Positions 1 to 15,065 of a DNA stretch of 64,000 nucleotides are shown here, one piece after another. Every line of letters begins with the position of its first letter. The stretch's first letter is position 1. The notes under the pieces were generated by a model that saw only the letters and a list, made by a program, of their open reading frames with translations, was not told the DNA's origin and did no database searches. Both the position numbers and the translations under genes were made by a program. Source of the stretch: Escherichia coli (lineage in GTDB: Bacteria; Pseudomonadota; Gammaproteobacteria; Enterobacterales; Enterobacteriaceae); assembly GCF_050920415.1 (NCBI RefSeq), contig NZ_CP169309.1. One strand, 5' to 3'.

Positions 1-1424
1 AGCCATACAGTGATCAGCAGTTAACTGCTGGTGTCAGTGCAGCACTTGGTTTATCAACAATTCCAACCAACACCAAACGCTATACCGGTAATGCAGCATT
101 CGATGCGGCATCTCCTGAGGCGCAGGCAAGTTTTATGCGACAGGCGGATCAACTGCGTCGGCAGCAGCAGGCTGAATATAAAACGATGATTGACAGCCAG
201 GTTCGCGATGCGACAGCTGCGTATATGCGTGGCGTTGAATTTCCTAACCCACCTGGTGAGGCTGATTTTATTGCAGCTTATGGAGTCAGAGAAGGAAAAC
301 TGCGATATACCGAGTTCAGAAATACGCAAATCGCCGGACAGTATATAGGCTCTTTCCGCAACATGCCGACAAGCAGCATTACAGCATATGTTGAGCAATT
401 ACGCCCGGATACTGGTGAGACAGGGGAGGGTTATGCGGCACGAGCCGCTCTTTATGACAACGTTGTGTCGGCTGCAAGTCAGGTGATAAAGCAGCGACAG
501 GCTGATCCTGTACAGTTCTCTCTTGCCGCCGGACAGGCAAAGCCTATCGACATGAGCAATAAGGATAACTTTGGACAGAGCGTTGCCTTGCGTGCTGCTC
601 AGGTCAGTGACCTTGCTAAGTCATATGGCACTCCACTGACGTTCTTTTCCAAAGACGAGGCCAATCAGATCGGTGTTTTCTTTCGTGATGCGCCCGTTTC
701 CCAACAGGCAGCATATCTCGATACCATCAGGCAGAGCACTGGTGGTGGGCAGGTGTATATGTCAGCACTACAGCAGATCAGTGCCAACGCTCCATCTGCT
801 GCCGTTGCCGGGATACTGATGGATAAGCCAGGTGGTATTTTGGCAGAAAAAAACTGGTTTAATCCGGATGTTTCCGTGTCTCCTGAAACCGCTGCGCAGA
901 CAATTCTTGCTGGCGCGGCGGCTCGTAAAGGTACTGATGACGCGAAAGGTATTCCGATGCCTAAAGATGCTGATCTCCGCCTTGAGTTTTCTGACATGGT
1001 GAAGGATGCATTTGCTGGTGATGCTCAGGGGGCATCAATGGCATACGAGATCGCAAAGGACTATTACGCTGGTGTGATGGCGAAAAAAGGCGTGGTATCA
1101 GGCGAAATTGACAATGATATCTGGAAACAGGCTGTTAACGTAGCTACAGGTGGCGTGCATGACTATAACGGAATGGGGAATGTTCTTTTGCCGTGGGGAA
1201 TGTCTGCAGAGCAATTCGATAAGCAGGTTAATCAGGCTTGGAATGAACAAGTTGTTGGCACAGGGATAAAAACACCGCCTGGTCAGTATGGTTTGCAAAG
1301 TTACGGCGATAGTCAGTACCTGGTGAAACTTGGTACTGGTTATCTGCTAAAAGATGATGGTTCTCCCGTTGTTCTTGATCTGACACAGAAGCGTCAGAGA
1401 TTCTCCGGAGATATTCCGCAATGA
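1..1424 (+). CDS. Phage virion internal/ejection-type protein, 5' end outside window
   Basis: Frame 3 is open from base 3 to the stop at 1422-1424 (ORF track starts at the first in-window ATG, 135). Acidic Ala/Gly/Gln-rich product directly upstream of two more large same-strand ORFs and a tailspike; ATGA overlap with the next ORF. Function inferred from position only. Confidence 0.5.
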   Translation, partial: PYSDQQLTAGVSAALGLSTIPTNTKRYTGNAAFDAASPEAQASFMRQADQLRRQQQAEYKTMIDSQVRDATAAYMRGVEFPNPPGEADFIAAYGVREGKLRYTEFRNTQIAGQYIGSFRNMPTSSITAYVEQLRPDTGETGEGYAARAALYDNVVSAASQVIKQRQADPVQFSLAAGQAKPIDMSNKDNFGQSVALRAAQVSDLAKSYGTPLTFFSKDEANQIGVFFRDAPVSQQAAYLDTIRQSTGGGQVYMSALQQISANAPSAAVAGILMDKPGGILAEKNWFNPDVSVSPETAAQTILAGAAARKGTDDAKGIPMPKDADLRLEFSDMVKDAFAGDAQGASMAYEIAKDYYAGVMAKKGVVSGEIDNDIWKQAVNVATGGVHDYNGMGNVLLPWGMSAEQFDKQVNQAWNEQVVGTGIKTPPGQYGLQSYGDSQYLVKLGTGYLLKDDGSPVVLDLTQKRQRFSGDIPQ

Positions 1425-3223
1425 GTTACTTTGGCCTTAATCCAGTAAACCAGAATCAGCAGCTTGACGAAGCAGCATCAAATCCAGCTGGCTTTAACAG
1501 CGATGTTGGTTTTTTCGACAATGCTGTAGGAGCGGCATTGTCTGGTTTGTACTCCGGGCTGGTGGCAAAGCCAGATCAGTTGCTCTGGGCAGGGATGGAT
1601 AAAATCGTATCCCCGATTGCTCAGTTTGTTAACGAAAACACCTCGCTCAATGACACTTCAGTTTCATACATTGCCGAGCAGAGAAAACTAGCAGAGCAGC
1701 AGGTTAAGCGGCTGACGCCTGATGCCGCGACAACCGGAACCGCCGGGCAGGTTCTTTATGGGTTGTTCGATATGGGCGGGCAGGCTGTTATCGGTACAAC
1801 GCTCGGTGGTCCGGCCGGAGGTGCTGCGGCGGTAACTTCGCTACAGGGTTTTTCTGAGTTTGAACGGCTGACAGCACAGGGTGTTGATTTCAGGACGGCG
1901 CAGGAAGCGGGATTAGTGCAGGGTATTACTGCTGGTGCCGGAACAATGATCCCTATGAGCCTCGGGTTACGTGCTGGTGGTGCGCTGGCGGAAGGTGTGG
2001 CGGCTCAGCTTGCGCGGACGGGTGAAAGTTCAGTGCGACGCGCCGCAGCAACAGCAGTAAGTGCAACGCCAGATATTGCCTATGCCGCAGGTACAAATAT
2101 TGCGTTCGGTATGGCACAGCGTGGGCTTACTGCAAAAACGCTTCGTGATGGTGGCTATAGCGAAATGGCTAACCAGTATGATGTGTTGGATCGACAGGCA
2201 ATTGCTATTGATGCTGTTCTTGGGGTGGCGTTTGGTGGTGTCGGCAGATTTATTAACTCTCGCGGCGAGTCTACAAGCGCACCAAATTTTTCACCAGTTG
2301 ATATTGATGCTGCACTGGCGGCGAATGCCGCTCATCATGCTGAAATTGATATTGCGCCCGGCGTGCCGATCAACGTGCTTTCGCGCAATTCTCACATTCA
2401 GGCTCTGCGAAAAGCTATGTCTGATGTTAGCCAGGGGAGACCTGTAGACGTTGCCAGCATTGTTGAGTCTGCATCTTTCAGTGAAATTCCTGGGCGCAAG
2501 AGTCTGCTGTCTCAGGCAGTTAATGAGGCTCTGTCATCTGTAGATGATGGAGTAACGGCGCGCGCTATAGAAAATCGGTTGCTTGAAGAACAGGCCGCGC
2601 AGCTTTTGCCGCGTGGAGATAGACAGGTTTACCAGTCTGAAATCGCTAATAGCCAACGAATTATTGAAAATCTCACTGAACAGCGTGCACAAATTCTTGC
2701 AGAAGAGCCAACCGGTAGCGGTAAAGCTTTGTCTCGTGCTCGATCAGATAAACAGGCCAGACTTCGTGATATTGATCAACGAATCCGGCAGGCACAAGAA
2801 CGCCTGGAATTTTCCCGTAACGCGTTGGCACCGCACGAGCCTGGAGGTCAGTTTTTTGAAGCTCGAGCAGAACTGGCACGGCGACAGCAGGCAGAAAGTG
2901 AACTTAATGCTCAGGCTGTTTCATTCTATAAAACAGCAGAGGTCAGGACGCCAGACGAAGTAGCTCCTTTTGAGCCCGGTAAGATATTGCAACAGACAGA
3001 ACAAAAAATGATGGCAGATCCGGCAGGAGATATTGATCTGCGTATAGCTGAAGACTCGCTGCTTGAATCACCTGACATGATAATCACCGTGCTGGATGAT
3101 GATGGTAATCCACAATCGCGCAGTGCGCGTGAAGTACTGGATGAAGCTAACAGGGAAAGTGAGCAGGCAATACAGGATTCCAGCCTGTTTGATGTTGCTG
3201 TGGCGTGTTTCTTGAGAGGTTAA
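1421..3223 (+). CDS. Phage virion internal/ejection-type protein (600 aa)
   Basis: 600-aa ORF translationally coupled to the upstream ORF (ATGA overlap); Gly/Ala-rich segments and a coiled-coil-like Q/R/E-rich region. No catalytic motif recognised by eye. Confidence 0.5.
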   Translation: MSYFGLNPVNQNQQLDEAASNPAGFNSDVGFFDNAVGAALSGLYSGLVAKPDQLLWAGMDKIVSPIAQFVNENTSLNDTSVSYIAEQRKLAEQQVKRLTPDAATTGTAGQVLYGLFDMGGQAVIGTTLGGPAGGAAAVTSLQGFSEFERLTAQGVDFRTAQEAGLVQGITAGAGTMIPMSLGLRAGGALAEGVAAQLARTGESSVRRAAATAVSATPDIAYAAGTNIAFGMAQRGLTAKTLRDGGYSEMANQYDVLDRQAIAIDAVLGVAFGGVGRFINSRGESTSAPNFSPVDIDAALAANAAHHAEIDIAPGVPINVLSRNSHIQALRKAMSDVSQGRPVDVASIVESASFSEIPGRKSLLSQAVNEALSSVDDGVTARAIENRLLEEQAAQLLPRGDRQVYQSEIANSQRIIENLTEQRAQILAEEPTGSGKALSRARSDKQARLRDIDQRIRQAQERLEFSRNALAPHEPGGQFFEARAELARRQQAESELNAQAVSFYKTAEVRTPDEVAPFEPGKILQQTEQKMMADPAGDIDLRIAEDSLLESPDMIITVLDDDGNPQSRSAREVLDEANRESEQAIQDSSLFDVAVACFLRG

Positions 3224-3786
3224 ATTAAATGAGACAGGAATGTATACAAGCGGTCCAGCAGGCGGCGCAGCGCACGTTAACGGCGCGAGAAATACAGAAC
3301 ATTGAAGACCGCATTTATCGCAATATGCGCTCCATTGCTCGTGATGACCCTATGTCGTGGCGACAACTTTCCGAGTCAGAGCGGCTGTATCGTGCAGCAC
3401 AATTGGCATCTGAAGAATTACAGCGAGAAGCGGCATTAAAGAAACGTCGTGTGGCTCTCACTATAGCTGCACGTCAGAGATTGGATAAATTTATCAATAG
3501 CTATCAAGGGGCTGATGGGAAACTTGGCGCTCTTAACCGTACTATAGCTTTTAATGCAGACGGTAAATCTAATTTCCTCTCTGTTGAATCCAGAACAAAA
3601 GCCACCCGTGATTATGCATTGAGTCAATTGCAGGAGGCATTCGAAGCAGTTGATCCTCGCTTTTTTGGTCTGTTTGAAGATGAAGCGGGCGTACGTAGAC
3701 TGGCCCCCTGAATCTCCAGACAACCAGTATCACTTAAATAAGTGATAGTCTTAATACTAGTTTTTAGACTAGTCATTGGAGAACAG

Positions 3787-4152
3787 ATGATTGATGTCTT
3801 AGGGCCGGAGAAACGCAGACGGCGTACCACACAGGAAAAGATCGCAATTGTTCAGCAGAGCTTTGAACCGGGGATGACGGTCTCCCTCGTTGCCCGGCAA
3901 CATGGTGTAGCAGCCAGCCAGTTATTTCTCTGGCGTAAGCAATACCAGGAAGGAAGTCTTACTGCTGTCGCCGCCGGAGAACAGGTTGTTCCTGCCTCTG
4001 AACTTGCTGCCGCCATGAAGCAGATTAAAGAACTCCAGCGCCTGCTCGGCAAGAAAACGATGGAAAATGAACTCCTCAAAGAAGCCGTTGAATATGGACG
4101 GGCAAAAAAGTGGATAGCGCACGCGCCCTTATTGCCCGGGGATGGGGAGTAA
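3787..4152 (+). CDS. insC: IS2 transposase OrfA (InsC)
   Basis: Translation [41 protein letters not shown]... recognised as IS2 InsC; ORF track starts 15 codons upstream at an ATG within the left inverted repeat. Confidence 0.9.
4104..4110 (+). other. A6G slippery heptamer, putative -1 programmed frameshift site joining insC and insD
   Basis: AAAAAAG at the 3' end of insC inside the insC/insD overlap; IS3-family elements produce the OrfAB transposase by -1 frameshifting at such sites. Confidence 0.55.
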
Positions 4153-5015
4153 GCTTAGTCAGCCGTTGTCTCCGGGTGTCGCGTGCGCAGTTGCACGTCA
4201 TTCTCAGACGAACCGATGACTGGATGGATGGCCGCCGCAGTCGTCACACTGATGATACGGATGTGCTTCTCCGTATACACCATGTTATCGGAGAGCTGCC
4301 CACGTATGGTTATCGTCGGGTATGGGCGCTGCTTCGCAGACAGGCAGAACTTGATGGTATGCCTGCGATCAATGCCAAACGTGTTTACCGGATCATGCGC
4401 CAGAATGCGCTGTTGCTTGAGCGAAAACCTGCTGTACCGCCATCGAAACGGGCACATACAGGCAGAGTGGCCGTGAAAGAAAGCAATCAGCGATGGTGCT
4501 CTGACGGGTTCGAGTTCTGCTGTGATAACGGAGAGAGACTGCGTGTCACGTTCGCGCTGGACTGCTGTGATCGTGAGGCACTGCACTGGGCGGTGACTAC
4601 TGGCGGCTTCAACAGTGAAACAGTACAGGACGTCATGCTGGGAGCGGTGGAACGCCGCTTCGGCAACGATCTTCCGTCGTCTCCAGTGGAGTGGCTGACG
4701 GATAATGGTTCATGCTACCGGGCTAATGAAACACGCCAGTTCGCCCGGATGTTGGGACTTGAACCGAAGAACACGGCGGTGCGGAGTCCGGAGAGTAACG
4801 GAATAGCAGAGAGCTTCGTGAAAACGATAAAGCGTGACTACATCAGTATCATGCCCAAACCAGACGGGTTAACGGCAGCAAAGAACCTTGCAGAGGCGTT
4901 CGAGCATTATAACGAATGGCATCCGCATAGTGCGCTGGGTTATCGCTCGCCACGGGAATATCTGCGGCAGCGGGCTTGTAATGGGTTAAGTGATAACAGA
5001 TGTCTGGAAATATAG
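4110..5015 (+). CDS. insD: IS2 transposase OrfB (InsD), DDE integrase-like
   Basis: 301-aa ORF overlapping insC in the -1 frame; sequence ...[50 protein letters not shown]... recognised as IS2 InsD. Confidence 0.9.
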
Positions 5016-7048
5016 GGGCAAATCCAGTACGTGACCTGGTATATGAAATGCGGGGGCAAAATACTGGCAATGCTAAAGCAAGAAAAGGTGCTAAGGCGTG
5101 GAGAGAAGTTACAGAGCTGCTGCGCCGCCGGTTTAATGATGCTGGTGGGGACATTGGCTATCTCGAAAACTGGGGGATCCCTCAACATCATTCTATGGAA
5201 AAGGTTGGGGCGGTATCAAAGGATAAGTGGGTTAGCGATGTTATAGGTAAGCTGGATCGCAAATATTATATCCGAGCCGATGGACAACTGATGAACGATG
5301 CCGAGTTGTCTGCATTTCTTGGAGAGGCTTATAACACGATCGCTACTGGTGGGCTGAATAAGCTTACTGATACCGGAATGCGAATTTCCGGCGCACGTGC
5401 TAACCGTGGTAATGCATCACGACAGATACATTTCAAAGATGCAGATTCCTATCTGCAATATCAGCAACTTTATGGCGATCGCTCTCTATGGGAAATCATG
5501 GTCGGTCACCTGGAAGGTATCAGTAAAGATATTGCACTGGTGGAAACATATGGCCCAAACCCCGATCATGTTTTCCGCTCTCTTCTTGATCAGGTGAAGG
5601 CAGAAACGGCAACAGCTAACCCGAGTAAAACCGGTAAAGTCGAGCGGCTGGCGAACAACACAGAGAATCTGTACAACTTTATTTCCGGAAAGACACAGCC
5701 TGTAGCAAATCCGCACATCGCGCGATGGTCTGACAATATCCGCAACTGGCTGGTTGCCAGCAGACTCGGATCCGCGTTGCTGTCATCGTTCTCTGATCTT
5801 GGAACCATGTATCTGTCTGCGAAGGTGACCAACCTTCCAATGAACCAGTTATTCCGCAACCAGCTTGAAGCTATGGACCCAACGAACCGTACTGAGCTTG
5901 CGCGGGCGCGCCGCGCTGGTCTGGCGATGGAATCTCTACTTGGCAGCGTTAACCGCTGGGCGATGGATAATATGGGGCCGTCAGTGTCTCGTTGGGCTGC
6001 AACGGCGGTAATGCGTGCCAGTGGGCTTACAGCATGGTCAGATGCGCACAAGCGCGCCTATGGCGTAACCATGATGGGAAGCCTGGGAGAAGTAGTGTCA
6101 CGGACACCAGACCTTCGTAGCCTCGATGACTCTGATTTTCGTATCCTGAAAAGCAAAGGGATTACTGACACAGACTGGAGCGTATGGAAGCTGGCGCAAC
6201 AGGAGGACTGGGGGAACGGTAATAATACGATGCTGACACCGGAAAGCATTATGCGTATCCCTGATTCAGCAGTTAAACATCTTGGTGAGCCTGAACGCGT
6301 GAAATTTGAGGCAATGCGTAAACTGCTCGGTGCCGTAACTGAAGAAGTTGATATGGCTGTTATTACACCGGGAGCACGTGAGCAACTGATAACCGGTTCT
6401 GGTATTCAGCGTGGAACATGGAAAGGTGAATTAACGAGAAGTGTTTTCCTGTTTAAATCGTTCCCTATCTCGGTGGTTATGCGTCACTGGTCACGCGCTA
6501 TGGGTATGCCGTCTGCTGGTGGGCGTGCGGCATATATTGCGACGTTTATTGCCAGCACGACCATTCTTGGCGCTTTGTCTCAGCAACTTAACGACCTTGC
6601 GTCTGGTCGTAATCATCGCGAGATGACAGGAGAAGATGCTGCTAAATTTTGGCTTGGTGCTCTACTGAAAGGTGGTGGTCTTGGCCTTTACGGTGACTTT
6701 TTATTGTCAGATCACACTAGGTACGGAAGCGGCGCGCTGGCGTCGATGCTTGGCCCGGTAGCTGGTCTGGTTGATGACGTAGTGAAGATTGCTCAGGGCA
6801 TACCGTTAAATGCTGTGGAAGGGAAGAATGAGCAGACTGGTGGTGATCTGGTTAAGCTGGGGAAGGGGCTGATGCCAGGTGCGAATCTCTGGTACTTGAA
6901 GGCGGCTCTCGATCACATGATCTTTAACCAGATGCAGGAGTATTTTTCACCAGGCTATTTGCGTAAAATGGAGCAACGTTCGAAGAAAGAGTTTAACCAG
7001 ACATACTGGTGGCGACCACAGGATGTCACTCCGCAATAAGGATGAGAA

Positions 7049-7189
7049 ATGATTGCTTTTATTCTTGTTGTGTTTGCGCTTGTTGCACTTGGCGTTATGA
7101 ACCGTAAATGTATCATTGACGATGGCGAATTTGCTGTTGCAGTTATTTTGATATTATCTGGTGTAGCAGGATACATAGGCTTGTCATAA
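7049..7189 (+). CDS. Hypothetical small hydrophobic peptide (46 aa, two predicted hydrophobic segments)
   Basis: ATG at 7049 preceded by AAGGATGAG 4-10 nt upstream; translation MIAFILVVFALVALGVMNRKCIIDDGEFAVAVILILSGVAGYIGLS; stop TAA 7187-7189; followed by palindromes and a terminator. Too short for the ORF track. Confidence 0.35.
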   Translation: MIAFILVVFALVALGVMNRKCIIDDGEFAVAVILILSGVAGYIGLS

Positions 7190-7209
7190 CGTGAGTGTGA
7201 CATGTCACA

Positions 7210-7233
7210 GGCCGCTTTCGCGGCCTTTTCTTT
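7210..7233 (+). terminator. Rho-independent terminator (GGCCGC-TTTC-GCGGCC followed by TTTTCTTT)
   Basis: 6-bp GC stem with 4-nt loop followed by a T-run on the + strand; preceded by the perfect palindrome TGTGACATGTCACA (7196-7209). Overlaps the stop codon of the convergent minus-strand ORF. Confidence 0.5.
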
Positions 7234-7489
7234 ATGTGGTTTGTTTTCGTAGTTGTTCGGCACAATAGTCGAGATGTGTTTGCAGATCCTGCATAGACAT
7301 CTGTGAGCTGGTGACGTAGTTAATCAGTGCAGTCAGTTCGGCAAGTGGGCCATCGACATTAAATCCATCCTTATCGAGATCCCGGAGTAATTTCATCAAG
7401 TGCGATCCTTCCACCAGTGACCTGACGCCTCCCGGCGTGTGAATCCTTTCGGTAAATCCCTCTTCCAGTGGATAGTGATACTGCTGCAT
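7232..7489 (-). CDS. Hypothetical small acidic protein (85 aa from the ATG at 7489) behind a LexA box
   Basis: ORF track gives 7232..7507 from a TTG; a better start is the ATG at 7489 (MQQYHYPLEEGF...) with GGAGAAG 7 nt upstream. A strong LexA box lies about 20 nt upstream. No family recognised by eye. Confidence 0.5.
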   Translation of the reverse strand: MQQYHYPLEEGFTERIHTPGGVRSLVEGSHLMKLLRDLDKDGFNVDGPLAELTALINYVTSSQMSMQDLQTHLDYCAEQLRKQTT

Positions 7490-7508
7490 CTTATCTTCTC
7501 CATGCAAT

Positions 7509-7528
7509 AACTGTATGTTTATACAGTA
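7509..7528. promoter_or_regulatory. LexA (SOS) box AACTGTATGTTTATACAGTA
   Basis: CTGT-N8-ACAG with an AT-rich spacer, 17/20 match to the E. coli consensus TACTGTATATATATACAGTA; sits in the divergent region between the small minus-strand ORF and the tailspike gene. Confidence 0.6.
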
Positions 7529-7684
7529 TCAAATAATTTGTTTGCTATCCAGCACGTTTTGCGAATCACCTGAAAGGTAATATCTGCTCACATTAACACT
7601 CTTTCCATCCATATATGGTTTTTCAGGTAATAGAATAACCAGATATGCGGCGCAACGGGTGCTGCGACTATCTGGAGATTTAAC

Positions 7685-9940
7685 ATGACGGTCTCAACCG
7701 AAGTTGACCACAACGAATACACAGGCAATGGCGTTACGACTTCATTCCCTTATACCTTTAGGGTTTTCAAGGAATCTGATCTGGTAGTGCAGGTGGTTGA
7801 CCTTGACGAAAATATCGCTGTGCTGGCTCTGGATACTGATTACACTGTCACTGGGGCTGGTGGATATAACGGCGGTAATGTAATTCTGTCGAAGGCGTTA
7901 GCTAACGGTTACCAGATTTCTATATCACGAGAGCTCCCGGTTACGCAGGAAACTGATTTGCGTAATCAGGGGAAGTTCTTTGCAGAAGTGCATGAGGATG
8001 CTTTTGATAAGCTAACGATGCTGATCCAGCAGGTTCGAAGTTGGTTTAGCTTGGCGCTGCGCAAGCCGTCATTCGTGGCAAATTATTATAACGCGCTGAA
8101 CAACTATATTCGAAACCTGAAAGACCCGGTAAACCCGCAGGATGCATCCACAAAGAATTATGTGGACAGTACGGTTTTATCGAATATCGACCATACAATC
8201 CGTGTTCCTGATTCTTATATCGATCCGCTGCCACCTCTCGCTCAACTTGAAGGAAGCATAATCGGCATCGCCAACGGTAAGCCCGTTCCGTTCCCTGTGC
8301 CTTCAGGAACGGCGGCTGACGTATTCAACCAGTTGGCCAGCAGCGCTGACGGGAAAGGTGATGCGCTGATAACAGTGAAGCAGCCTTACCAGGGGGCAAT
8401 TTCTCTTTCGCAGCATATAAAAAATGCACAAGCCATTAGTGTTGTTGATTTTGGAGCGACAATTGATGGAACGCTTCACCCTTTAAGCGAGATATTTTCA
8501 ACACTATCAGCTGCTCAGATGGTATATCCATTTGTTTCATCTCTATCTCAATCTGTTGATTATGCTGCGCTTCAGTCCGCATGTAACACGGGAAAAACAG
8601 TGCTTATTCCAAAGGGAACTGGTTACTATAATTCAACTATTTTTCTGAAAAACTCCGTTAGGATTGTTGGAGAGGGAACTGATACAATAAATAGAGCGCA
8701 ATCATTTATGTCTATTGTTGGTAATATTTCAGCCTTTGCTTTAGATCAAGGTGATTCCCTATCGACAAAAATGATTCAGATTTTTATTGATGGTCTTTAT
8801 ATTTTCTATGATCCAGGAACCACACCAACGAATCCTGAAAATGATGGTGGGAAAATTGCATTTAATTTCTACTCGACAATTCCAAATTCAACAAGCTTGG
8901 AAATGTCTGAAATTAAAAACTGTACAGTTCATGGTGCATGGTCATGCTTTAATGATCAGACTGGCACATACTTGACAAAACTTACGAATGTGTGGGCCAG
9001 AAACTGCCATAATGGTTTTACAAAAGGAACTGGCACTACCATTCTGATGGAAAGATGTTATACATCTGGATGTATATCACCATATCAGTTTGGTTCTGTC
9101 TTTGCAGCTACAATGATTAACTGTGCCATGGATGGATCAAATATTTCGTTAAACGCAGGTTCGCTTGGTGGGGCTGGCGTTCATGTTCTTAACACACATA
9201 GTTTTAACATTATTGGTTTTGATGCGGAGGGTAACACCATCTCTACAGATGGTTATGGAGAGGCAGCACTATTCCATTTCGAAAATAGTAGTGGTGGCAT
9301 TTCTGGCCTGACTGCACATCAGAACAGCATGCGAAGTGTTGCGCCAAGTGATGCTGGTGTAGTTTCCTACATCAGGGCGTCAGGTAGCAGCGATGTTAAA
9401 ATTGAGTCATCAGAAGATGATTTATCTGACACCAACACAGTTGCATATACTGGGTCTGGGTATCCCATCATGCTACATGCAACTGACACAGCTAAAATAA
9501 GCGTCTTTAATAGCAGATTCAGGGCGACTACCACTGGTACCCCTGTCTTAAGTACGCTAAGTACTGGTGATGTATCATGGTATGACTGCCCTAAAAAAAC
9601 AGGACTTATCGTAGATGGTTATTCACAAATAACATCTAAGGAAGGATTGCAAACATCATGCTTCTATACCAGTAAAGGCTCTACTGCTGTTGCTGAAAAT
9701 ACTCCGACAACACTTTTCTCTCTACCAGATTCGCAAGGTACTTACATTATTAGCGTATGGGTGGCTGGAAGCGGAGAAAATTACGCATCTACACAACTGG
9801 CAATGTATGATGGAGATAAGCTAATTCTTGTTGCGTTAAAAATAGCAGCATTTCTTAGTTTTTCAGCAACAGGGAGAATTGTAACCATTACAAGCCAGGT
9901 GGCAGGCACTTTAAACTGGACTTACACTAAAATAGGTTGA
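7685..9940 (+). CDS. Phage tailspike / tail fibre (751 aa), probable O-polysaccharide-specific receptor-binding protein
   Basis: N-terminus MTVSTEVDHNEYTGNGVTTSFPYTFRVF... has the Y-x-G-x-G...F...F signature of podovirus tail-fibre/tailspike particle-binding domains; from memory it resembles epsilon15/phiV10-type tailspikes (unverified). The C-terminal two thirds are visibly AT-rich and Ser/Thr/Asn/Gly-rich, consistent with a beta-helical receptor-binding domain. Confidence 0.75.
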   Translation: MTVSTEVDHNEYTGNGVTTSFPYTFRVFKESDLVVQVVDLDENIAVLALDTDYTVTGAGGYNGGNVILSKALANGYQISISRELPVTQETDLRNQGKFFAEVHEDAFDKLTMLIQQVRSWFSLALRKPSFVANYYNALNNYIRNLKDPVNPQDASTKNYVDSTVLSNIDHTIRVPDSYIDPLPPLAQLEGSIIGIANGKPVPFPVPSGTAADVFNQLASSADGKGDALITVKQPYQGAISLSQHIKNAQAISVVDFGATIDGTLHPLSEIFSTLSAAQMVYPFVSSLSQSVDYAALQSACNTGKTVLIPKGTGYYNSTIFLKNSVRIVGEGTDTINRAQSFMSIVGNISAFALDQGDSLSTKMIQIFIDGLYIFYDPGTTPTNPENDGGKIAFNFYSTIPNSTSLEMSEIKNCTVHGAWSCFNDQTGTYLTKLTNVWARNCHNGFTKGTGTTILMERCYTSGCISPYQFGSVFAATMINCAMDGSNISLNAGSLGGAGVHVLNTHSFNIIGFDAEGNTISTDGYGEAALFHFENSSGGISGLTAHQNSMRSVAPSDAGVVSYIRASGSSDVKIESSEDDLSDTNTVAYTGSGYPIMLHATDTAKISVFNSRFRATTTGTPVLSTLSTGDVSWYDCPKKTGLIVDGYSQITSKEGLQTSCFYTSKGSTAVAENTPTTLFSLPDSQGTYIISVWVAGSGENYASTQLAMYDGDKLILVALKIAAFLSFSATGRIVTITSQVAGTLNWTYTKIG

Positions 9941-9975
9941 TGTTATGCGTGGGGAGCAATGCTCCCCATCATCAA

Positions 9976-11835
9976 TTAAAAAATAAATGGCTTGTCATTT
10001 TTTAATTTTTTCCCAAACTCCCTTGAGCCTTCTAGAGTGAAATGACTATTATCAAAGTAAAGATAATCACCTTTAGTAGAAAGGATGTCACAATTCATTG
10101 ACTTTCCGCACTGCTCGGCAAGCGTATCTATGTATTTATACGAATGCTGGTTGCTACCAAGATAGCCTTTTATCGTATTGTTAATTTCAACTCTACTATT
10201 GTCATAATACTTTTTAGAGTATTTATTTATCCCATCAACTGTGTTTACGCCAGATTTAAAAGCAGACTTAATTATTTCCATTGGCTGTGCCGTAAACTTC
10301 ATCTTAGGCCCAAATACAATAACTTCTCCTTTAGTCCTCTCCTGTATTTTGCCTATAGAGTAAAGCATCCCGAACAGATCGCCAACGCCATAATCATCAT
10401 GAAGGATTATAATGTTAGCTTCAGCTATGGCTGGAGATGAGATTACGTCATTGAATATTTTTTTGCACTTTTCTACATAGGGCATGTCGTTTGGTGTATA
10501 ACCAAAGTTTGAACATAAGTTTGTAGTTCTTATATAAGTTATATCACCCTTCATCCCATTTTCAGTAAGTGCATAAGTCAGATCTATGCCATGAGAATTA
10601 CCGATTATTACTATTTTTTTGTCACCTGTCTTCGGTACAGGGTGAGGCTTGTCTCCATCAACCCAATACCTGTTCATTTGTTCTTTTAGCTGTTCGGACG
10701 TCATTGTGGCAAACGAAAACCTTGATGGAATTCCAGATAGCAATAGTACAGCGAAGCACAAACCAACTACACCACCTACAGGTAGCACGATTGAAGTTAA
10801 TTCATTCAAGGACCTGCCGTTTTTAAATTTTGAAAGTGCCTTTCTTGAAGGGTTTTCAATTAAATAAAATGATGCGGCACCAATAAGAATTGATAAGGCA
10901 ACACCTGATACTGTATAAACCATATCATCCATCTTATTCATTGACATATATACAACTATGGGCCAGTGAACCAGATATACCGAGTATGAAATTTTCCCAA
11001 CCCATTGAGATAATGCATTATCAAGTAATAGGTTATCTTTACATCCAAGATAAATGACAAAGAAAGTAGAAACGACTGGTATTAAGGCAAGATACCCAGG
11101 CCACTTCATTAAGCTGTTAAGCAAGACTATCCCCGATACTGCAAAGGCTATGGCAATCCATCTAAATACAGCAGTGCGTTTTGAATTTTGTATAGTAGGA
11201 AGAAGGTAGGCAAGGCCGCCAGCCAGCATCTCCCAAGCTCTGCTTGACAGAAGATAAAATGCAGCGCCCTGATTATTATAAGAAAGATACACTGAGGCAG
11301 TAAATGATATAATTGCAAGGATGGCAACAACATACCTTATATGCTTAGCGCCCAATAGCTTTGCAATCACCATCATTATGATTGGATATACCATGTAAAA
11401 CTGCCACTCTACAGAAAGCGACCATGTATGAAGAAGCCATTTCTGCTTTGATGCAGTATCAAAATAATCAATGCTATGGTAATACTCAACGTTTGAGAAA
11501 AATAAAAGGCTACTTCTTACGTGTTGAGCCAGGTATTCATATTCAGAAGGTAAAAGAATGAAGTAACCAACTATCAGAACAGCAACTGAAACTACAGTTA
11601 AAGCAGGTATAATTCTTCTTGCCCTATCAAGATAAAATCCTAACAGTGAAAAGTTTCCATTAGATATCTTTGTGTAAATTATTCCAGTCATCAGATACCC
11701 TGATATAACAAAGAATATATCTACGCCTGAAAATCCACCAGAGAACCCTTTGACTCCGAAGTGATAAAGGACAACTGCCATAACAGCAATAGCCCTAAGC
11801 CCGCCTATATCTGTTCTGTATTTTAAAGAAGACAT
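9976..11835 (-). CDS. Membrane acyltransferase-3 family protein with C-terminal SGNH-like domain; probable O-antigen acetyltransferase (OafA/Oac-like)
   Basis: 619 aa; N-terminal R-x10-H motif (RTDIGGLRAIAVMAVVLYH) and about 10 hydrophobic helices typical of acyltransferase-3; C-terminal soluble domain with a GNSH block. Strongly AT-rich gene, convergent with the tailspike. Confidence 0.8.
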   Translation of the reverse strand: MSSLKYRTDIGGLRAIAVMAVVLYHFGVKGFSGGFSGVDIFFVISGYLMTGIIYTKISNGNFSLLGFYLDRARRIIPALTVVSVAVLIVGYFILLPSEYEYLAQHVRSSLLFFSNVEYYHSIDYFDTASKQKWLLHTWSLSVEWQFYMVYPIIMMVIAKLLGAKHIRYVVAILAIISFTASVYLSYNNQGAAFYLLSSRAWEMLAGGLAYLLPTIQNSKRTAVFRWIAIAFAVSGIVLLNSLMKWPGYLALIPVVSTFFVIYLGCKDNLLLDNALSQWVGKISYSVYLVHWPIVVYMSMNKMDDMVYTVSGVALSILIGAASFYLIENPSRKALSKFKNGRSLNELTSIVLPVGGVVGLCFAVLLLSGIPSRFSFATMTSEQLKEQMNRYWVDGDKPHPVPKTGDKKIVIIGNSHGIDLTYALTENGMKGDITYIRTTNLCSNFGYTPNDMPYVEKCKKIFNDVISSPAIAEANIIILHDDYGVGDLFGMLYSIGKIQERTKGEVIVFGPKMKFTAQPMEIIKSAFKSGVNTVDGINKYSKKYYDNSRVEINNTIKGYLGSNQHSYKYIDTLAEQCGKSMNCDILSTKGDYLYFDNSHFTLEGSREFGKKLKNDKPFIF

Positions 11836-11982
11836 AATCGCTATCGTTTTGAGTAAGATGCATTAATGATATCACCTTTAGGGTAATTTCGTTAAGAGTT
11901 ATCCGATCAAATTTAATCCACATATGGTTTATTGTGTATGATGAACTCACCAACTAAGGGGGTTCTTTATGCACAATAAACG

Positions 11983-12396
11983 GTGGTCACTATGGCGCAT
12001 GTGCTGACAACAGAGTCAGTAAATCAGGGGTTAAGCCTGACTGCACTGGCGTCCGTGTTCGTTGGTATACCGCCTGAGGTGGCTTTAGGTGCTCTTGCTG
12101 GTGCGGTAATTTTTGTTACCTCAGCGGTTGAGTATCCGATAAAGCGTAGGTTGCTCCTGGCGCTCCTAAGCTTCCTCTGCGGCGTTCTCTTCTATAAAGC
12201 GACAGCTTCCATTCTGATTGGCTTTGCCAGCCTGATACCAACGATTACGCAGGACTCTTTTGAGAAGGGCATTGTGTATTCCGCCGGGGCATTCGTGTCT
12301 GCAATCGTCGCTGTTCGCATTGGCATCTGGCTGTATCACCGTTCTGAAAATCCGCGCGACATGATCCCGGGGAGAAAAGACGATGACCAGTCCTGA
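11983..12396 (+). CDS. Putative holin (137 aa multi-span membrane protein)
   Basis: First gene of a + strand cluster ending in endolysin and Rz/Rz1; several hydrophobic helices and a charged C-terminus; two closely spaced in-frame Met codons (MVTMAHV). Holin call is positional. Confidence 0.5.
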   Translation: MVTMAHVLTTESVNQGLSLTALASVFVGIPPEVALGALAGAVIFVTSAVEYPIKRRLLLALLSFLCGVLFYKATASILIGFASLIPTITQDSFEKGIVYSAGAFVSAIVAVRIGIWLYHRSENPRDMIPGRKDDDQS

Positions 12397-12676
12397 TCTG
12401 CTTCTCATCCTTAACGCCGCTATCTGCGGTGGCATTGCAATCCGAGTGCTTCTGTTCCGCCGTGACGGGTCACGTCACCGCTGGTGGGGTGGGTGGCTCG
12501 CCTATCTGCTGATCGTCGTGGCAGCCAGCGTACCTATCCGGACTTTCTACGGGTACTACGTCAGCGCCGACTGGTCAGAAGTCATCATCAAAGCCGTGTT
12601 CCTGGCTGCGCTCATCAAGACAAAAGGGAACGTGGTGCAAATTTTCAAGATAACGAGGTCCCAGCATGGACATTAA
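12383..12676 (+). CDS. Putative second holin/antiholin-like membrane protein (97 aa)
   Basis: Overlaps the end of the previous ORF and the start of the endolysin gene; two or three hydrophobic segments; basic C-terminus. Confidence 0.45.
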   Translation: MTSPDLLLILNAAICGGIAIRVLLFRRDGSRHRWWGGWLAYLLIVVAASVPIRTFYGYYVSADWSEVIIKAVFLAALIKTKGNVVQIFKITRSQHGH

Positions 12677-13295
12677 CCAATTCCAGCGTGCAGCTGGCAT
12701 CAGTGAGGTGCTGGCCGCGCGCTGGTACCTGCATATCACCGCAGCCATGAAAGAGTTTGGCATCGAGCAACCGCTGCACCAGGCGATGTTTATCGCGCAG
12801 GTGGGGCATGAGTCTACTGGTTTCACCCGGCTGCAGGAAAACTTCAACTACAGCGTTGCAGGGCTCGCAGGATTCGTCCGCGCCGGGCGACTTACTCAGG
12901 GTCAGGCCAACGCGCTGGGCCGCCGTGCTGGCGAGCCATCGTTACCGCTGGAGCGCCAGCGCGCGATCGCCAATCTGGCGTACAGCAAACGCATGGGGAA
13001 CAATGCCCCTGGTGATGGCTGGAATTACCGTGGCCGCGGACTTATCCAGATTACCGGTTTGAATAACTATCGTGATTGCGGAAACGTCCTGAAAGTGGAC
13101 CTGCTGGAGAATCCTGAACTGTTGGCGCAGGACGAATATGCGGCTCGTAGCGCGGCGTGGTTCTTCGCCAGCAAAGGATGCATGAAGTATACCGGCGATA
13201 TTGCACGTGTAACTCTGATTATCAATGGTGGCCGGAACGGCATCGACGACCGGCGCGCGCGGTACATCACTGCCAGTAAGGTGCTGGCGGTATGA
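12666..13295 (+). CDS. Endolysin, glycoside hydrolase family 19 (chitinase-like lysozyme)
   Basis: 209 aa; motif FIAQVGHESTGF...NYRGRGLIQITG typical of GH19-type phage endolysins; position between holin-like genes and Rz. Confidence 0.85.
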   Translation: MDINQFQRAAGISEVLAARWYLHITAAMKEFGIEQPLHQAMFIAQVGHESTGFTRLQENFNYSVAGLAGFVRAGRLTQGQANALGRRAGEPSLPLERQRAIANLAYSKRMGNNAPGDGWNYRGRGLIQITGLNNYRDCGNVLKVDLLENPELLAQDEYAARSAAWFFASKGCMKYTGDIARVTLIINGGRNGIDDRRARYITASKVLAV

Positions 13296-13774
13296 TCTGG
13301 GCATTCGCAAAAGCATACTGGAAACAGTTGCTTATCGTGGTGATGCTTGCTGTTCTGGTCATATCGGGAATTGTTTCCTGGAATGTACACGGCAGTCGTC
13401 AGTACGATGCCGGGTATGCGCAGGCGAAGGAAGACCGCAAAGCTGAAGATGAGATAGTTCGTCAGCACTACGAACAGGAGAAATCGATCAATGAACGTGA
13501 AGCGCAGCAGAGGATCGACCAGGCGCGCAATGATGCTCTTGATGCTGCCGCTCGCGCTGGCCGGTTGCAGCAACAACTCTTTGCCATCCGTGAGCAGCTC
13601 AGGCAGTATAACGCCATTGTCGGCGCTGGGACGTCAGCCGCAGACACCGGAGTTTTGCTTGCCGACGTGCTCAGCAAATCTCTCGAGAGAAACAGACAAC
13701 TGGCAGAGTATGCTGACCGGGCAGCCGAAGCCGGAAGAGTCTGCGAAAAACAATACGACACCCTGACCAGATAG
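13292..13774 (+). CDS. Rz-like inner-membrane spanin (i-spanin)
   Basis: 160 aa; N-terminal transmembrane helix followed by coiled-coil-prone Q/R/E/A-rich periplasmic domain; ATGA overlap with the endolysin stop; contains an embedded +1 frame lipoprotein ORF. Confidence 0.75.
   Translation: MIWAFAKAYWKQLLIVVMLAVLVISGIVSWNVHGSRQYDAGYAQAKEDRKAEDEIVRQHYEQEKSINEREAQQRIDQARNDALDAAARAGRLQQQLFAIREQLRQYNAIVGAGTSAADTGVLLADVLSKSLERNRQLAEYADRAAEAGRVCEKQYDTLTR
13530..13766 (+). CDS. Rz1-like outer-membrane lipoprotein spanin (o-spanin), embedded in Rz
   Basis: +1 frame ORF wholly inside Rz; from ATG at 13530 the product MMLLMLPLALAGCS... has a signal peptide with lipobox LAGC and a Pro-rich mature part. 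ORF track starts it further upstream at 13491. Confidence 0.7.
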   Translation: MMLLMLPLALAGCSNNSLPSVSSSGSITPLSALGRQPQTPEFCLPTCSANLSRETDNWQSMLTGQPKPEESAKNNTTP

Positions 13775-13884
13775 CATGGCATTTTTCATGGTACTGATTT
13801 CCGGTGACGGTATATAAAACGGTACTAGAAAAATGAAGTTTTGGAAAAATGTTATCACTCAATTGGTTATGATTGTCGTAAATA

Positions 13885-13899
13885 ATTGAGTGGGAATGA
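13885..13899 (+). other. Putative prophage attR core / remnant of the guaA 3' end (ATT GAG TGG GAA TGA = IEWE-stop)
   Basis: 15-nt string encoding the C-terminal residues ...IEWE plus stop of GMP synthase as recalled for E. coli GuaA, in the orientation expected for guaA converging on yfgI; preceded in frame by a stop codon, so it is an isolated gene end, not a gene. Confidence 0.45.
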
Positions 13900-13924
13900 T
13901 TTGATCCCTGCACTATGAATTAGC

Positions 13925-13953
13925 AAAACCCTCTGTTACTACAGAGGGTTTTT
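13925..13953. terminator. Bidirectional rho-independent terminator (AAAA-CCCTCTGT-TACT-ACAGAGGG-TTTTT)
   Basis: Perfect 8-bp stem, 4-nt loop, flanked by A-run and T-run; lies between the guaA-end remnant and the convergent yfgI stop. Confidence 0.65.
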
Positions 13954-13991
13954 ATACTCACGAATCATAGGATTGAAGTTACTGACATCGC

Positions 13992-14531
13992 TTAGTTAAA
14001 CCAGCTGTCCGATTTGTTCTCTTCTGCTTTGCCCACGCTTTTCATCAGATCGCGACCGCCTTCAGTCATATTCCTGTTTGCGTCAGCTTCAGATTGCACC
14101 ACATCGGTTTGCGCAGCTTTGTGCTTCAGTTCCTGATCGATAAATTCGTTTTCTCGCTTAACGCGGGCTTCTTCTTTCGCCAGCGCCAGTTTTTGTTTCT
14201 GAATCTCTAAGCTGCGTAGCTCATCTTCATAACTTTGATCGCGTTTCTTGTCCGCAGTGGCTTCGGCGTCCAGTTTATCCTGACGAGCTTTCTTATTCGC
14301 CGCTGCCGTTGCCGCTCTTTTATTAGCCGCGGCCTGGGCGTTTGCGCGACGTTGCTTCTCTTGCTGGATTTCCCTGTTGCGCTCCGCGACCCATTCGTCA
14401 TGCTGCCTTTGCTCTTCATTTTTACCTTGCTGTTCCGCTTCTGCGACAGCAGAGAGTTGATCCTGCAATGATGAGGCGATAGCCGGATAGCTTAAGGAGG
14501 CTAAGATGGCGCAAAGAAAAACTTTCTTCAT
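13992..14531 (-). CDS. yfgI: YfgI, periplasmic protein (179 aa)
   Basis: Signal peptide MKKVFLCAILASLSYPAIA followed by a highly charged coiled-coil-like region; length and position match E. coli yfgI. Confidence 0.85.
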   Translation of the reverse strand: MKKVFLCAILASLSYPAIASSLQDQLSAVAEAEQQGKNEEQRQHDEWVAERNREIQQEKQRRANAQAAANKRAATAAANKKARQDKLDAEATADKKRDQSYEDELRSLEIQKQKLALAKEEARVKRENEFIDQELKHKAAQTDVVQSEADANRNMTEGGRDLMKSVGKAEENKSDSWFN

Positions 14532-14546
14532 GACTCCTCCTGATTA

Positions 14547-15065
14547 TTAGCTCTTTTCAGGACATTTGGTATTTGGCTGAATACGCGTTTCGTTATACGT
14601 CGTGGTAATAACAACGGCTAAACCTGTCGTAAACTGGCACTCTTTACCCACCTGGGTGGAGGTATACACTTTGGTGCCTTCCTTATACGTTAGAGAAACA
14701 CCTTCCACTAAGGTTTTATCATTCACCATAGAACCTGCTGCCGCGCCAACAGCTCCGCCGCCAACTGCACCTGCCGTCGTTCCGGAATTGCTGCCAGACC
14801 CCACGTTGTGGCCGATAACACCGCCAGCGACTGCACCAATAAGCGCGCCGAAGGCTTGTGCGTTTCGTTTATTTTGGGAGTTGTCTACGGCAACTTTTGC
14901 GGGAAGAATGGAAATAATATTAACGGTTTTAGTTTCTTGTTTGGTATTCAGTTGATCGGTTTGATAAACATCGGCGGCATGATCATCAGCATTTGACTGG
15001 CATCCTGCCAGAGTGAATGACGCTAACATTGCCACAGGCAGAAGACATTTTTTAAATTTCATCAC
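14547..15065 (-). CDS. yfgH: YfgH, outer-membrane lipoprotein with glycine-zipper region (172 aa)
   Basis: Lipobox LAGCQ; Gly-rich GxxxG repeats (GALIGAVAGGVIGHNVGSG...); matches E. coli yfgH. Confidence 0.85.
   Translation of the reverse strand: MMKFKKCLLPVAMLASFTLAGCQSNADDHAADVYQTDQLNTKQETKTVNIISILPAKVAVDNSQNKRNAQAFGALIGAVAGGVIGHNVGSGSNSGTTAGAVGGGAVGAAAGSMVNDKTLVEGVSLTYKEGTKVYTSTQVGKECQFTTGLAVVITTTYNETRIQPNTKCPEKS

Follow-up and report, generated by a model that had tools for sequence, protein, structure and literature searches.

The probable lysis operon of a phiV10/epsilon15-type Escherichia coli prophage and its linked pair of inconsistently labelled membrane genes

Lysis cassettes of the epsilon15 and phiV10 type carry, upstream of the endolysin gene, two small membrane-protein genes, here called A and B, to which the literature assigns roles inconsistently. 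The epsilon15 and phiV10 records name A a 'membrane protein' and B a 'holin', and papers on the Burkholderia phages KS5 and AP3 call A a 'putative antiholin' and B a 'holin', the reverse of the labels used in papers on the Pseudomonas aeruginosa Alp system, in which the A homologue is the 'holin' and the B homologue the 'anti-holin'. In that system alpB is PA0908 and alpC is PA0909 (supplement of PMC7969949), and the primary Alp results are taken here in the form in which PMC7969949 and PMC8131026 restate them. A delta-alpB background served to 'prevent lysis', with alpD still induced 133-fold (PMC7969949). A delta-alpB delta-hol strain is as defective as delta-lys in Lys-dependent explosive lysis, and in genetic terms AlpB is a holin for Lys, which is PA0629, the endolysin of the pyocin cluster (PMC8131026). 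According to PMC12329726, the endolysin of a cryptic prophage of P. aeruginosa is a GH19 enzyme, and we infer that this enzyme is PA0629.

A window of 64,000 nucleotides from E. coli (contig NZ_CP169309.1) contains a five-gene stretch that its sequence relationships identify as the late lysis operon, intact, of a Uetakevirus prophage of the phiV10/epsilon15 type, lying at the right end of that prophage beside yfgI/yfgH (Table 1). A first-pass annotation had read this region as a lysis cassette in which two small membrane proteins precede a GH19 endolysin and a fully embedded Rz/Rz1 pair. Its five open reading frames are all present where it placed them and the family matches agree with its reading, but the interval it gave to the cassette, 11836-13774, opens with a non-coding leader (11836-11991) that holds no reading frame. 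All five proteins match phage lysis families among the PHROG profiles with E values of 1e-34 to 1e-89, far beyond chance, and NCBIfam returned no meaningful match for any of them. The nucleotide identity of the cassette to BUCT554 and phiV10 is about 85% across 98-99% of its length, and it is 79-86% across 96-99% of 2,065 nt when SPN1S and epsilon15 are compared along with these two. The gene order A-B-GH19 endolysin-Rz(Rz1) is common to the window, epsilon15, phiV10, SPN1S and others. Upstream, 12 kb are about 97% identical to structural genes of phiV10/PAS61 over the 58% that aligns. The cassette follows a divergent serotype-conversion gene and precedes the att site, after which comes the host junction with yfgI, and a similar cassette stands beside yfgI/yfgH in 470 of 5,426 complete E. 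coli genomes. An O-antigen acyltransferase moron adjoins gene A on the opposite strand. Downstream of the operon, a break in the similarity to phage DNA begins at about position 13903, which places the prophage/host junction around there. The hairpin beyond this point has a counterpart in phiV10 and epsilon15 that is annotated there as a rho-independent terminator; a simple terminator scan did not flag it, and its identification comes only from alignment to these annotated phage terminators. Judged by such matches, the cassette is already known, an ordinary phage lysis gene set that has been annotated before.

Table 1. Features of the lysis operon and its flanks (positions in the window)
Feature	Position	Strand	Match or basis
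Conserved leader RNA hairpin, ~23 bp, imperfect	11927..11981	+	Directly 5' of the gene A ribosome-binding site
Gene A, Phage_holin_8 (PF16931) membrane protein, 134 aa	11992..12396	+	Pfam i-Evalue 2.1e-12 (residues 8-123); phrog_198 'holin' 1.2e-38
Gene B, Phage_holin_3_7 (PF05449, formerly DUF754) membrane protein, 97 aa	12383..12676	+	Pfam i-Evalue 8.6e-26 (model positions 2-80 of 80); phrog_217 'holin' 6.2e-34
GH19 endolysin, SPN1S type, 209 aa	12666..13295	+	4OK7 7.1e-113; Pfam Glyco_hydro_19 3.5e-08; phrog_181 7.7e-89
Rz-type i-spanin, 160 aa	13292..13774	+	phrog_312 'Rz-like spanin' 4e-60
Rz1-type o-spanin, 91 aa	13491..13766	+	phrog_11621 1.6e-40
GC-rich hairpin followed by T-run, downstream of operon	13925..13953		Alignment with phiV10, epsilon15

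The leader hairpin has an MFE of -35.7 kcal/mol (z = -4.6; 0 of 200 shuffles fold equally well) and is kept in epsilon15, phiV10 and Tyrion, with four stem pairs varying on one side only and pairing retained in each. The epsilon15 record annotates RNase III processing at the corresponding site, and an Rfam search of 11700-14100 gave nothing real, the hairpin included. A candidate uORF of 12 codons upstream of A (AAGGGGG Shine-Dalgarno sequence and ATG 11969) was rejected, since the conserved hairpin sequesters both elements and the length of the uORF is not conserved (6 codons in phiV10). From its sequence context, gene A itself starts at ATG 11992 and has no lambda-style dual start. The frame of 137 aa that had been proposed is real as a mechanical ORF opening at a GTG (11983-12396), the protein from the ATG being shorter, and the supposed pair of closely spaced Met starts (MVTMAHV) dissolves once the first 'M' is seen to be that GTG codon (11983-11985) rather than an ATG. 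A start-type codon does lie in frame 9 nt 5' of the ATG in the window, epsilon15, phiV10 and Tyrion, as a lambda-S-like gene yielding holin and antiholin from GTG 11983 and ATG 11992 would have it. Such a reading is nevertheless extremely improbable: GTG 11983 is the core of the GGTGG Shine-Dalgarno sequence (11982-11986, 5-nt spacing) serving ATG 11992 and has no Shine-Dalgarno sequence of its own, the AAGGGGG about 20 nt upstream being buried in a hairpin of -30 kcal/mol. The three-residue extension MVT would add no charge, residues 2-6 of A vary among close relatives (MAHV in the window, MSAQ/MSAG in others), the A-family consensus is MxEP without a second Met, and nearly all of the 120 homologues listed are called at an ATG with 134 aa.

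The gene A product is 81-88% identical to its counterparts in epsilon15, phiV10 and BUCT554, and the Phage_holin_8 family comprises 481 representatives at 50% identity. It ends in a charged C-terminal tail, and the charge pattern is family-wide. An AF2 model (pLDDT 81) predicts helices at residues 8-23, 28-44, 50-79 and 92-119, hence 3 or 4 spans, depending on whether the first two helices form a hairpin or one kinked span. Comparison of this model with solved structures gave no significant fold match (best E 2.5), and the sole viral fold match at E <= 0.001 is another predicted 'holin'. The second membrane frame was correctly described as overlapping the first: the last 14 nt of A are also the first of B, an arrangement suggestive of translational coupling. 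The B product has 99% identity to the BUCT554 protein and only 62% to the phiV10 and epsilon15 proteins. Hydropathy and the positive-inside rule predict three transmembrane domains (TMDs) in a class I-like, N-out/C-in topology, and a pattern of three hydrophobic helices, basic loop 1, acidic loop 2 and basic C-terminus is kept across 18 diverse members; the AF2 model, with a pLDDT of 69, puts the helices at residues 3-24, 34-55 and 64-79. The Pfam name of the PF05449 family itself carries the word 'putative'. The idea that A and B are paralogues was rejected, their hhalign probability being only 4.5%.

The endolysin gene overlaps B by 11 nt, and its product aligns over residues 1-208 with the solved SPN1S structure (PDB 4OK7). 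Both Glu of an HES...QEN segment, which we take to be the catalytic residues, are identical between the two. No 15-residue window of the protein reaches a mean hydropathy of 1.0 and the profile is flat, which bears out the description of a GH19 endolysin without signal or SAR segment. A SAR or signal-peptide endolysin working with a pinholin was accordingly discarded as a candidate, the N-terminal hydrophobic segment being absent, and a soluble endolysin implies, as had been argued, a canonical large-hole holin. The Rz gene is joined to the endolysin gene through an ATGA overlap. Its product shares 95% identity with the Rz of phiV10; an N-terminal TMD covers about residues 11-29, the periplasmic domain is helical and charged, and the only Cys is residue 151. 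Rz1 lies wholly within Rz in the +1 frame, the fully embedded architecture that had been recognised from the start, and its length (276 nt) and position match those of the annotated Rz1 of epsilon15 and phiV10. Its signal, MNVKRSRGSTRRAMMLLMLPLALAGC, contains the expected lipobox LAGC with Cys26, whereas the description of the protein as Pro-rich is only moderately apt, as the mature form of 66 aa has 8 Pro (12%) along with 3 Cys. By sequence, the two are a typical embedded two-component spanin pair.

The membrane-gene pair reaches well beyond the Uetakevirus group, which the first-pass annotation missed, as it did how well annotated the cassette is. Wherever a sampled locus was informative, A and B were linked as a module of two genes, in at least six phage lineages, an observation that is new here. 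In 22 of 22 phage loci, the window included, an A-family frame ends at or overlaps the start of a B-family frame (E 1e-20 to 1e-53); these loci, drawn from annotated phage records and encoding contigs, were mostly chosen by B homology alone. The phages represented are Uetakevirus, lambdoid, P2-like, D3-like, N4-like and Casjensviridae, and the annotated endolysins are not the same: some are GH19-type, others lysozymes or N-acetylmuramidases, and some loci have none next to the pair. Starting from distant A representatives likewise turned up an adjacent B in loci L030 to L034, in the last of which the B frame exists and had been left uncalled in the annotation.

Profile comparison also makes A and B homologues of P. 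aeruginosa AlpB and AlpC (PA0908/PA0909). The P. aeruginosa locus found (L026) has the order alaS-lysC-csrA-repressor-176 aa-A-B-167 aa-150 aa-DUF4124-mgtE, and the published AlpA-binding element GGGACGN5GGTA has a single occurrence there, 5' of A at a distance of about 105 nt; AlpB was thus identified through synteny (rsmA...mgtE), this element and the gene names. Against the A profile the AlpB homologue scores about 3e-28, and against the B profile the AlpC homologue scores about 6e-28; AlpB carries PF16931 (Phage_holin_8) and AlpC belongs to Phage_holin_3_7. Direct BLASTP of the window's A against AlpB was not significant (E 1.1), so that the A-AlpB link holds at profile level only, and AlpC is about 26% identical to B. 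AlpB was not among the matches of a word-indexed search with the PP9W2 A protein and was reached through profile-search representatives, cluster members and genomic context.

In the account that we consider probable, this Uetakevirus operon follows the canonical three-step route, with A needed for the holes and B as its partner. Translationally coupled A and B would accumulate in the inner membrane and then open large, non-specific holes, through which the folded cytoplasmic SPN1S-type GH19 muramidase would exit to degrade the murein, the embedded Rz/Rz1 pair disrupting the outer membrane last. The two membrane proteins would function as a unit whose two genes are inherited jointly in many phage lineages. 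In this unit A is proposed, by homology with AlpB, to be the essential hole-forming component, and B, as its obligate partner, would either regulate timing as an antiholin or contribute a subunit to the hole. It was fairly remarked in the first-pass annotation that holin and antiholin could not be told apart here, and the inconsistent published labels agree. A literature search found separate tests of A alone, B alone and A+B for no member of either family, and the division of labour that we infer leans on AlpB genetics, obtained with a distant homologue of A. Since deletion of alpB prevents lysis, A is unlikely to be an antiholin only, although the deletion could also affect AlpC via translational coupling, as the two genes overlap by 8 nt. 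In a stronger form, A and B would be an obligate heteromeric two-component holin, neither sufficient alone, making up a distinct class that is present in many phages and domesticated as AlpB/AlpC; this we regard as possible and rather doubtful.

B has nonetheless the look of a textbook class I holin, at about 100 aa with three predicted N-out/C-in TMDs and a basic C-terminus, and encoded directly upstream of the endolysin gene, which it overlaps. It could on these grounds be the sole canonical holin, with A as a separate-gene antiholin that delays triggering. Phage annotators consistently label B 'the holin', records and papers leaving A a 'membrane protein' or 'putative antiholin', the same roles are predicted for the homologous pairs of Burkholderia KS5, KS14, KL3 and AP3, and a precedent exists in P2 Y/LysA, cited in PMC3091744. 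These assignments, however, were all predicted solely from gene position and TMD counts, and knockout of an antiholin should give early lysis, whereas deletion of alpB prevents rather than accelerates it with the downstream alp genes still transcribed (PMC7969949), and AlpB substitutes for Hol in the release of Lys (PMC8131026). A sole B holin is unlikely. Much less likely still is that A has no part in lysis and is, for example, a moron or a superinfection-exclusion membrane protein lodged between serotype-conversion and lysis genes. The RefSeq records of epsilon15 and phiV10 do say only 'membrane protein', and the opposite-strand acyltransferase moron is the immediate neighbour of A. Yet the A-B overlap is kept in unrelated phage lineages without nearby serotype-conversion genes, P2-like phages included, A has matches to a Pfam family of putative holins and to a holin PHROG, and its homologue AlpB is needed for lysis (PMC7969949, PMC8131026).

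For the window itself these results have little importance, as the operon is a routine annotated prophage lysis operon. Of wider interest is that the Phage_holin_8/Phage_holin_3_7 pair is strictly linked and yet bears contradictory role labels in different literatures, and that the only genetics available, those of P. aeruginosa alpB, suggest that the protein left unnamed or called 'antiholin' is the one needed for lysis. The role assignment of A and B, once settled, would correct many phage annotations and clarify how Alp programmed lysis releases the pyocin-cluster endolysin Lys; were the two-component holin true, hundreds of phage records would carry an incomplete or reversed label for DUF754 proteins ('holin') and for their partners ('membrane protein' or 'antiholin').

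Compared with known systems, the window stands closest to the Uetakevirus cassettes of epsilon15, SPN1S, phiV10, BUCT554 and Tyrion, with which it shares the same five genes and their order, the overlapping junctions, an A/B overlap of 14 nt in all those compared, and a site flanked on one side by a serotype-conversion gene of divergent transcription and on the other by attP/int. It differs from them in its upstream acyltransferase, a long form of 619 aa, and in the length of B (97 aa, against 102 aa in phiV10 and epsilon15), and relative to phiV10 it is a mosaic, with structural genes about 97% identical and a cassette only about 85% identical. A homologous A-B module occurs in the Burkholderia P2-like phages KS5, KS14, KL3 and AP3 and in Mana, whose gp08 and gp09 match epsilon15 proteins by the record's own notes and also match the A and B profiles. 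In the P2-like phages the pair sits between tail gene X and the endolysin; in those of Burkholderia it is immediately upstream of the endolysin and spanins and replaces the Y...lysA genes of P2, and the endolysin, with PG_binding_1 and muramidase domains, is unlike that of the window. AlpB/AlpC show the same order and overlapping genes (8 nt), but the Alp locus is a domesticated chromosomal remnant under AlpR/AlpA that has, unlike the window, no adjacent endolysin or spanins. As with lambda S105/S107, a soluble endolysin is served and large holes would be needed, and the predicted topology of B is that of lambda class I (three TMDs, N-out/C-in); sequence similarity and a dual start are absent in this comparison, and regulation, if any, would operate via a second gene instead of a second start codon. 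The spanins resemble lambda Rz/Rz1 in combining an N-terminal-TMD i-spanin with a lipoprotein o-spanin wholly embedded in the +1 frame. They belong to other sequence families (phrog_312, phrog_11621), and the mature o-spanin is longer than that of lambda, at 66 aa and only 12% Pro. With L the length of the i-spanin, the o-spanin extends from about 0.41 L to about 0.98 L, inside the range typical of embedded spanins (start 0.4-0.5 L, end 0.9-1 L; PMC6139136).

The five open reading frames that the first-pass annotation had read as a lysis cassette (11836-13774: two overlapping membrane proteins, a GH19 endolysin and an embedded Rz/Rz1 pair) were recovered at the positions it assigned, with overlaps of 14, 11 and 4 nt between consecutive genes. 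All five products match phage lysis families in PHROGs (E 1e-34 to 1e-89), and the two membrane proteins, those of gene A (134 aa) and gene B (97 aa), also match Pfam holin families. The endolysin aligns over its full length with the solved SPN1S endolysin (E 7e-113), and its hydropathy profile contains no hydrophobic N-terminal segment, as expected from the proposed absence of a signal or SAR sequence and pointing to a soluble cytoplasmic enzyme. Rz1 is indeed embedded in Rz, with a basic n-region, the predicted lipobox and a mature part of 66 aa containing 8 Pro and 3 Cys.

Features of the lysis cassette, its leader and the adjoining host genes
Feature	Position	Strand	Assignment and remarks
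Leader RNA hairpin, ~23 bp	11927-11981	+	MFE -35.7 kcal/mol, z = -4.6; directly 5' of the Shine-Dalgarno sequence of A
Membrane protein A	11983-12396 (mechanical ORF); ATG at 11992	+	Pfam Phage_holin_8, PF16931, 2.1e-12
Membrane protein B	12383-12676	+	Pfam Phage_holin_3_7, PF05449, 8.6e-26
Endolysin	12666-13295	+	Pfam Glyco_hydro_19; PDB 4OK7 match
Rz	13292-13774	+	One N-terminal TMD; single Cys at position 151
Rz1	13491-13766	+	Wholly within Rz, +1 frame; lipobox LAGC
yfgI	13992-14531	-	Host gene beyond right prophage end
yfgH	14547-15065	-	Host gene beyond right prophage end

Over 96-99% of its length, the cassette shares 79-86% nucleotide identity with those of phages BUCT554 (Enterobacter), phiV10 (Escherichia), and SPN1S and epsilon15 (Salmonella), and annotated phage records show the same five-gene set and order, with a divergent serotype-conversion gene on one side and the att site and integrase on the other. 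Of the 12 kb upstream, 58% aligns with phiV10/PAS61 tail and head genes, at ~97% identity, so that the window begins inside a Uetakevirus (phiV10/epsilon15-type) prophage whose last operon is the cassette. Downstream lie yfgI and yfgH, and 470 of 5,426 complete E. coli genomes carry a similar cassette here. Unbroken similarity to phiV10/epsilon15 DNA ends at ~13903, and the alignment places the right prophage/host junction within ~13903-13990; a terminator hairpin at 13925-13953 is common to the window and the phage attP region and may therefore belong to the att core. Judged by sequence identity, cassette and prophage are mosaic: the structural genes (flanks 1-11990) are ~97% identical to phiV10/PAS61 whereas the lysis cassette reaches only ~85%, with identities to phiV10 of 83% for A, 90% for the endolysin and 95-96% for Rz and Rz1. 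B shares 62% amino acid identity with its phiV10/epsilon15 counterparts but 99% with that of BUCT554, suggesting recombinational replacement within the cassette. Proteins 97-99% identical to A are present in public databases, and the cassette as such is known and has been annotated before, which makes it a genuine but ordinary finding. Transcribed divergently from the lysis operon is a 619-aa membrane acyltransferase (9976-11835, minus strand), sitting where the phiV10 oac and epsilon15 serotype-conversion genes sit; phiV10 Oac is far shorter (339 aa), and the protein resembles a Tyrion 'putative acyltransferase' and a PAS61 'O-antigen acetylase'.

Two closely spaced Met starts (MVTMAHV) had hinted at a lambda-like dual start in A, a reading that we reject. 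The first 'M' is a GTG at 11983, kept in epsilon15, phiV10 and the Enterobacter phage Tyrion, which forms the centre of a GGTGG Shine-Dalgarno sequence 5 nt before the ATG. No Shine-Dalgarno-like sequence was found at a usable distance 5' of the GTG itself, and an AAGGGGG ~20 nt upstream is part of the leader hairpin. Moreover, the MVT extension carries no charge, residues after the Met of A vary among close relatives, and almost all of the 120 database homologues listed for A are 134 aa long; on this sequence evidence the hint arose artefactually, from a GTG being read as Met. The hairpin is likewise conserved in epsilon15, phiV10 and Tyrion, with four stem pairs varying on one side only and pairing kept in each, and the epsilon15 record annotates the element as an RNase III site. 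It also buries an apparent strong Shine-Dalgarno sequence and ATG (11957-11971), otherwise resembling a 12-codon uORF.

A and B show no detectable relatedness to each other (hhalign probability 4.5%), and appear from their genomic distribution to be one strictly paired module. Profiles built from six A-B pairs were used to ask whether an A-family ORF abuts a B-family ORF in phage records taken along the tblastn ranking for B, together with a single distant A hit. The two overlap or touch in all 22 loci, the window included (E 1e-20 to 1e-53), spanning Uetakevirus, lambdoid and Stx/LT-II phages (mEp390, phiP27, SerU-LTIIb, Fostie, Chris1), P2-like phages of Burkholderia, Shewanella, Ralstonia and Aeromonas, D3-like Pseudomonas phages, an N4-like Salmonella phage and Casjensviridae. 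The endolysin beside the pair differs, being GH19-type, a lysozyme, an N-acetylmuramidase, or none adjacent. Reverse sampling from distant representatives of the A family (481 clusters at 50% identity) found B next after A in every contig reaching past A, one such B ORF being present but uncalled. One 1,236-aa protein (P0242) matches the A profile in 17 separate stretches, which is unusual given a family norm of ~125 aa; a repeat fusion could account for this, as could an artefact of assembly or gene calling.

Topology was predicted for both proteins, with an ambiguous outcome for A. In 18 diverse B proteins, the first TMD is followed by a strongly basic loop, the second by an acidic loop and the third by a basic tail, predicting an N-out/C-in, class I holin-like arrangement (AF2 helices 3-24, 34-55 and 64-79; pLDDT 69). 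In 125 A proteins, a conserved Pro/Gly-Asp/Glu turn divides an N-terminal hydrophobic block, which is followed by a basic loop, a TMD, a less hydrophobic helix with an acidic loop, and a last TMD with a charged tail (AF2 helices 8-23, 28-44, 50-79 and 92-119; pLDDT 81). Since the first block may be one span or a hairpin, A could have three or four TMDs and be N-out or N-in.

Which of the two is the holin has been labelled inconsistently. In the Burkholderia phage papers (KS5/KS14/KL3 and AP3) the A homologue is the predicted antiholin and the DUF754 protein the predicted holin, based solely on gene position and TMD counts, and the epsilon15 and phiV10 records label A 'membrane protein' and B 'holin'. 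Our literature search found no experiment separating A from B for any phage. One A-family cluster is a P. aeruginosa chromosomal protein, in a locus (L026) ordered alaS-lysC-csrA, an S24 repressor on the opposite strand, a 176-aa gene, A (124 aa), B (91 aa), a 167-aa gene, a 150-aa gene, DUF4124 and mgtE. On the PAO1 map we take rsmA to be PA0905 and mgtE PA0913, so that this order would correspond to PA0903-PA0913. PA0907-PA0911 are alpA, alpB, alpC, alpD and alpE (supplement, PMC7969949), and the published AlpA-binding element GGGACGN5GGTA occurs once only in the locus, ~105 nt 5' of the A gene; terminator-like hairpins follow the element. Gene order, gene names and binding element together identify AlpB as A-family and AlpC as B-family (~3e-28 and ~6e-28 against the respective profiles), the homology between the window's A and AlpB being distant and apparent at profile level only.

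Deletion of alpB served "to prevent lysis" upon pathway induction, with alpD still up 133-fold in that background (PMC7969949), and a delta-alpB delta-hol strain was impaired to the same degree as delta-lys in explosive lysis that depends on Lys, from which the authors concluded that either AlpB or Hol suffices for Lys to act (PMC8131026). By analogy, and in contrast to the Burkholderia predictions, these AlpB genetics would make A necessary for lysis, which counts against A as an antiholin only; B would then act as either a regulator or a co-subunit. As a caveat, it is B that has the textbook holin look, and deleting alpB may have a polar effect on alpC. The alp locus itself has two forms among the P. 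aeruginosa genomes sampled (L022-L029; genes after L022:4643 and L026:4643). In the PAO1-like form (L026), a 167-aa tail-terminator-like gene (PF23961, alpD position) comes after alpB-alpC, then a 150-aa gene and host genes; in other strains the head alpR/176-aa/alpB/alpC precedes a complete contractile-tail module that comprises terminator, sheath-like and tube genes and tail-assembly chaperones. The Alp system thus looks like a tailocin or prophage stump, and AlpD like a relic tail terminator.

For the cassette as a whole, the canonical holin-endolysin-spanin pathway is best supported. The A/B pair would form the hole-forming and timing unit, its ratio set by translational coupling; the soluble GH19 enzyme would leave the cytoplasm through large holes, and the embedded Rz/Rz1 pair would then disrupt the outer membrane. 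The remaining interest is of a general kind and not particular to the window: a holin module that is widespread and strictly paired carries inconsistent annotations of how its two proteins share the work, and the cross-link to AlpB/AlpC of P. aeruginosa provides a direct experimental handle.
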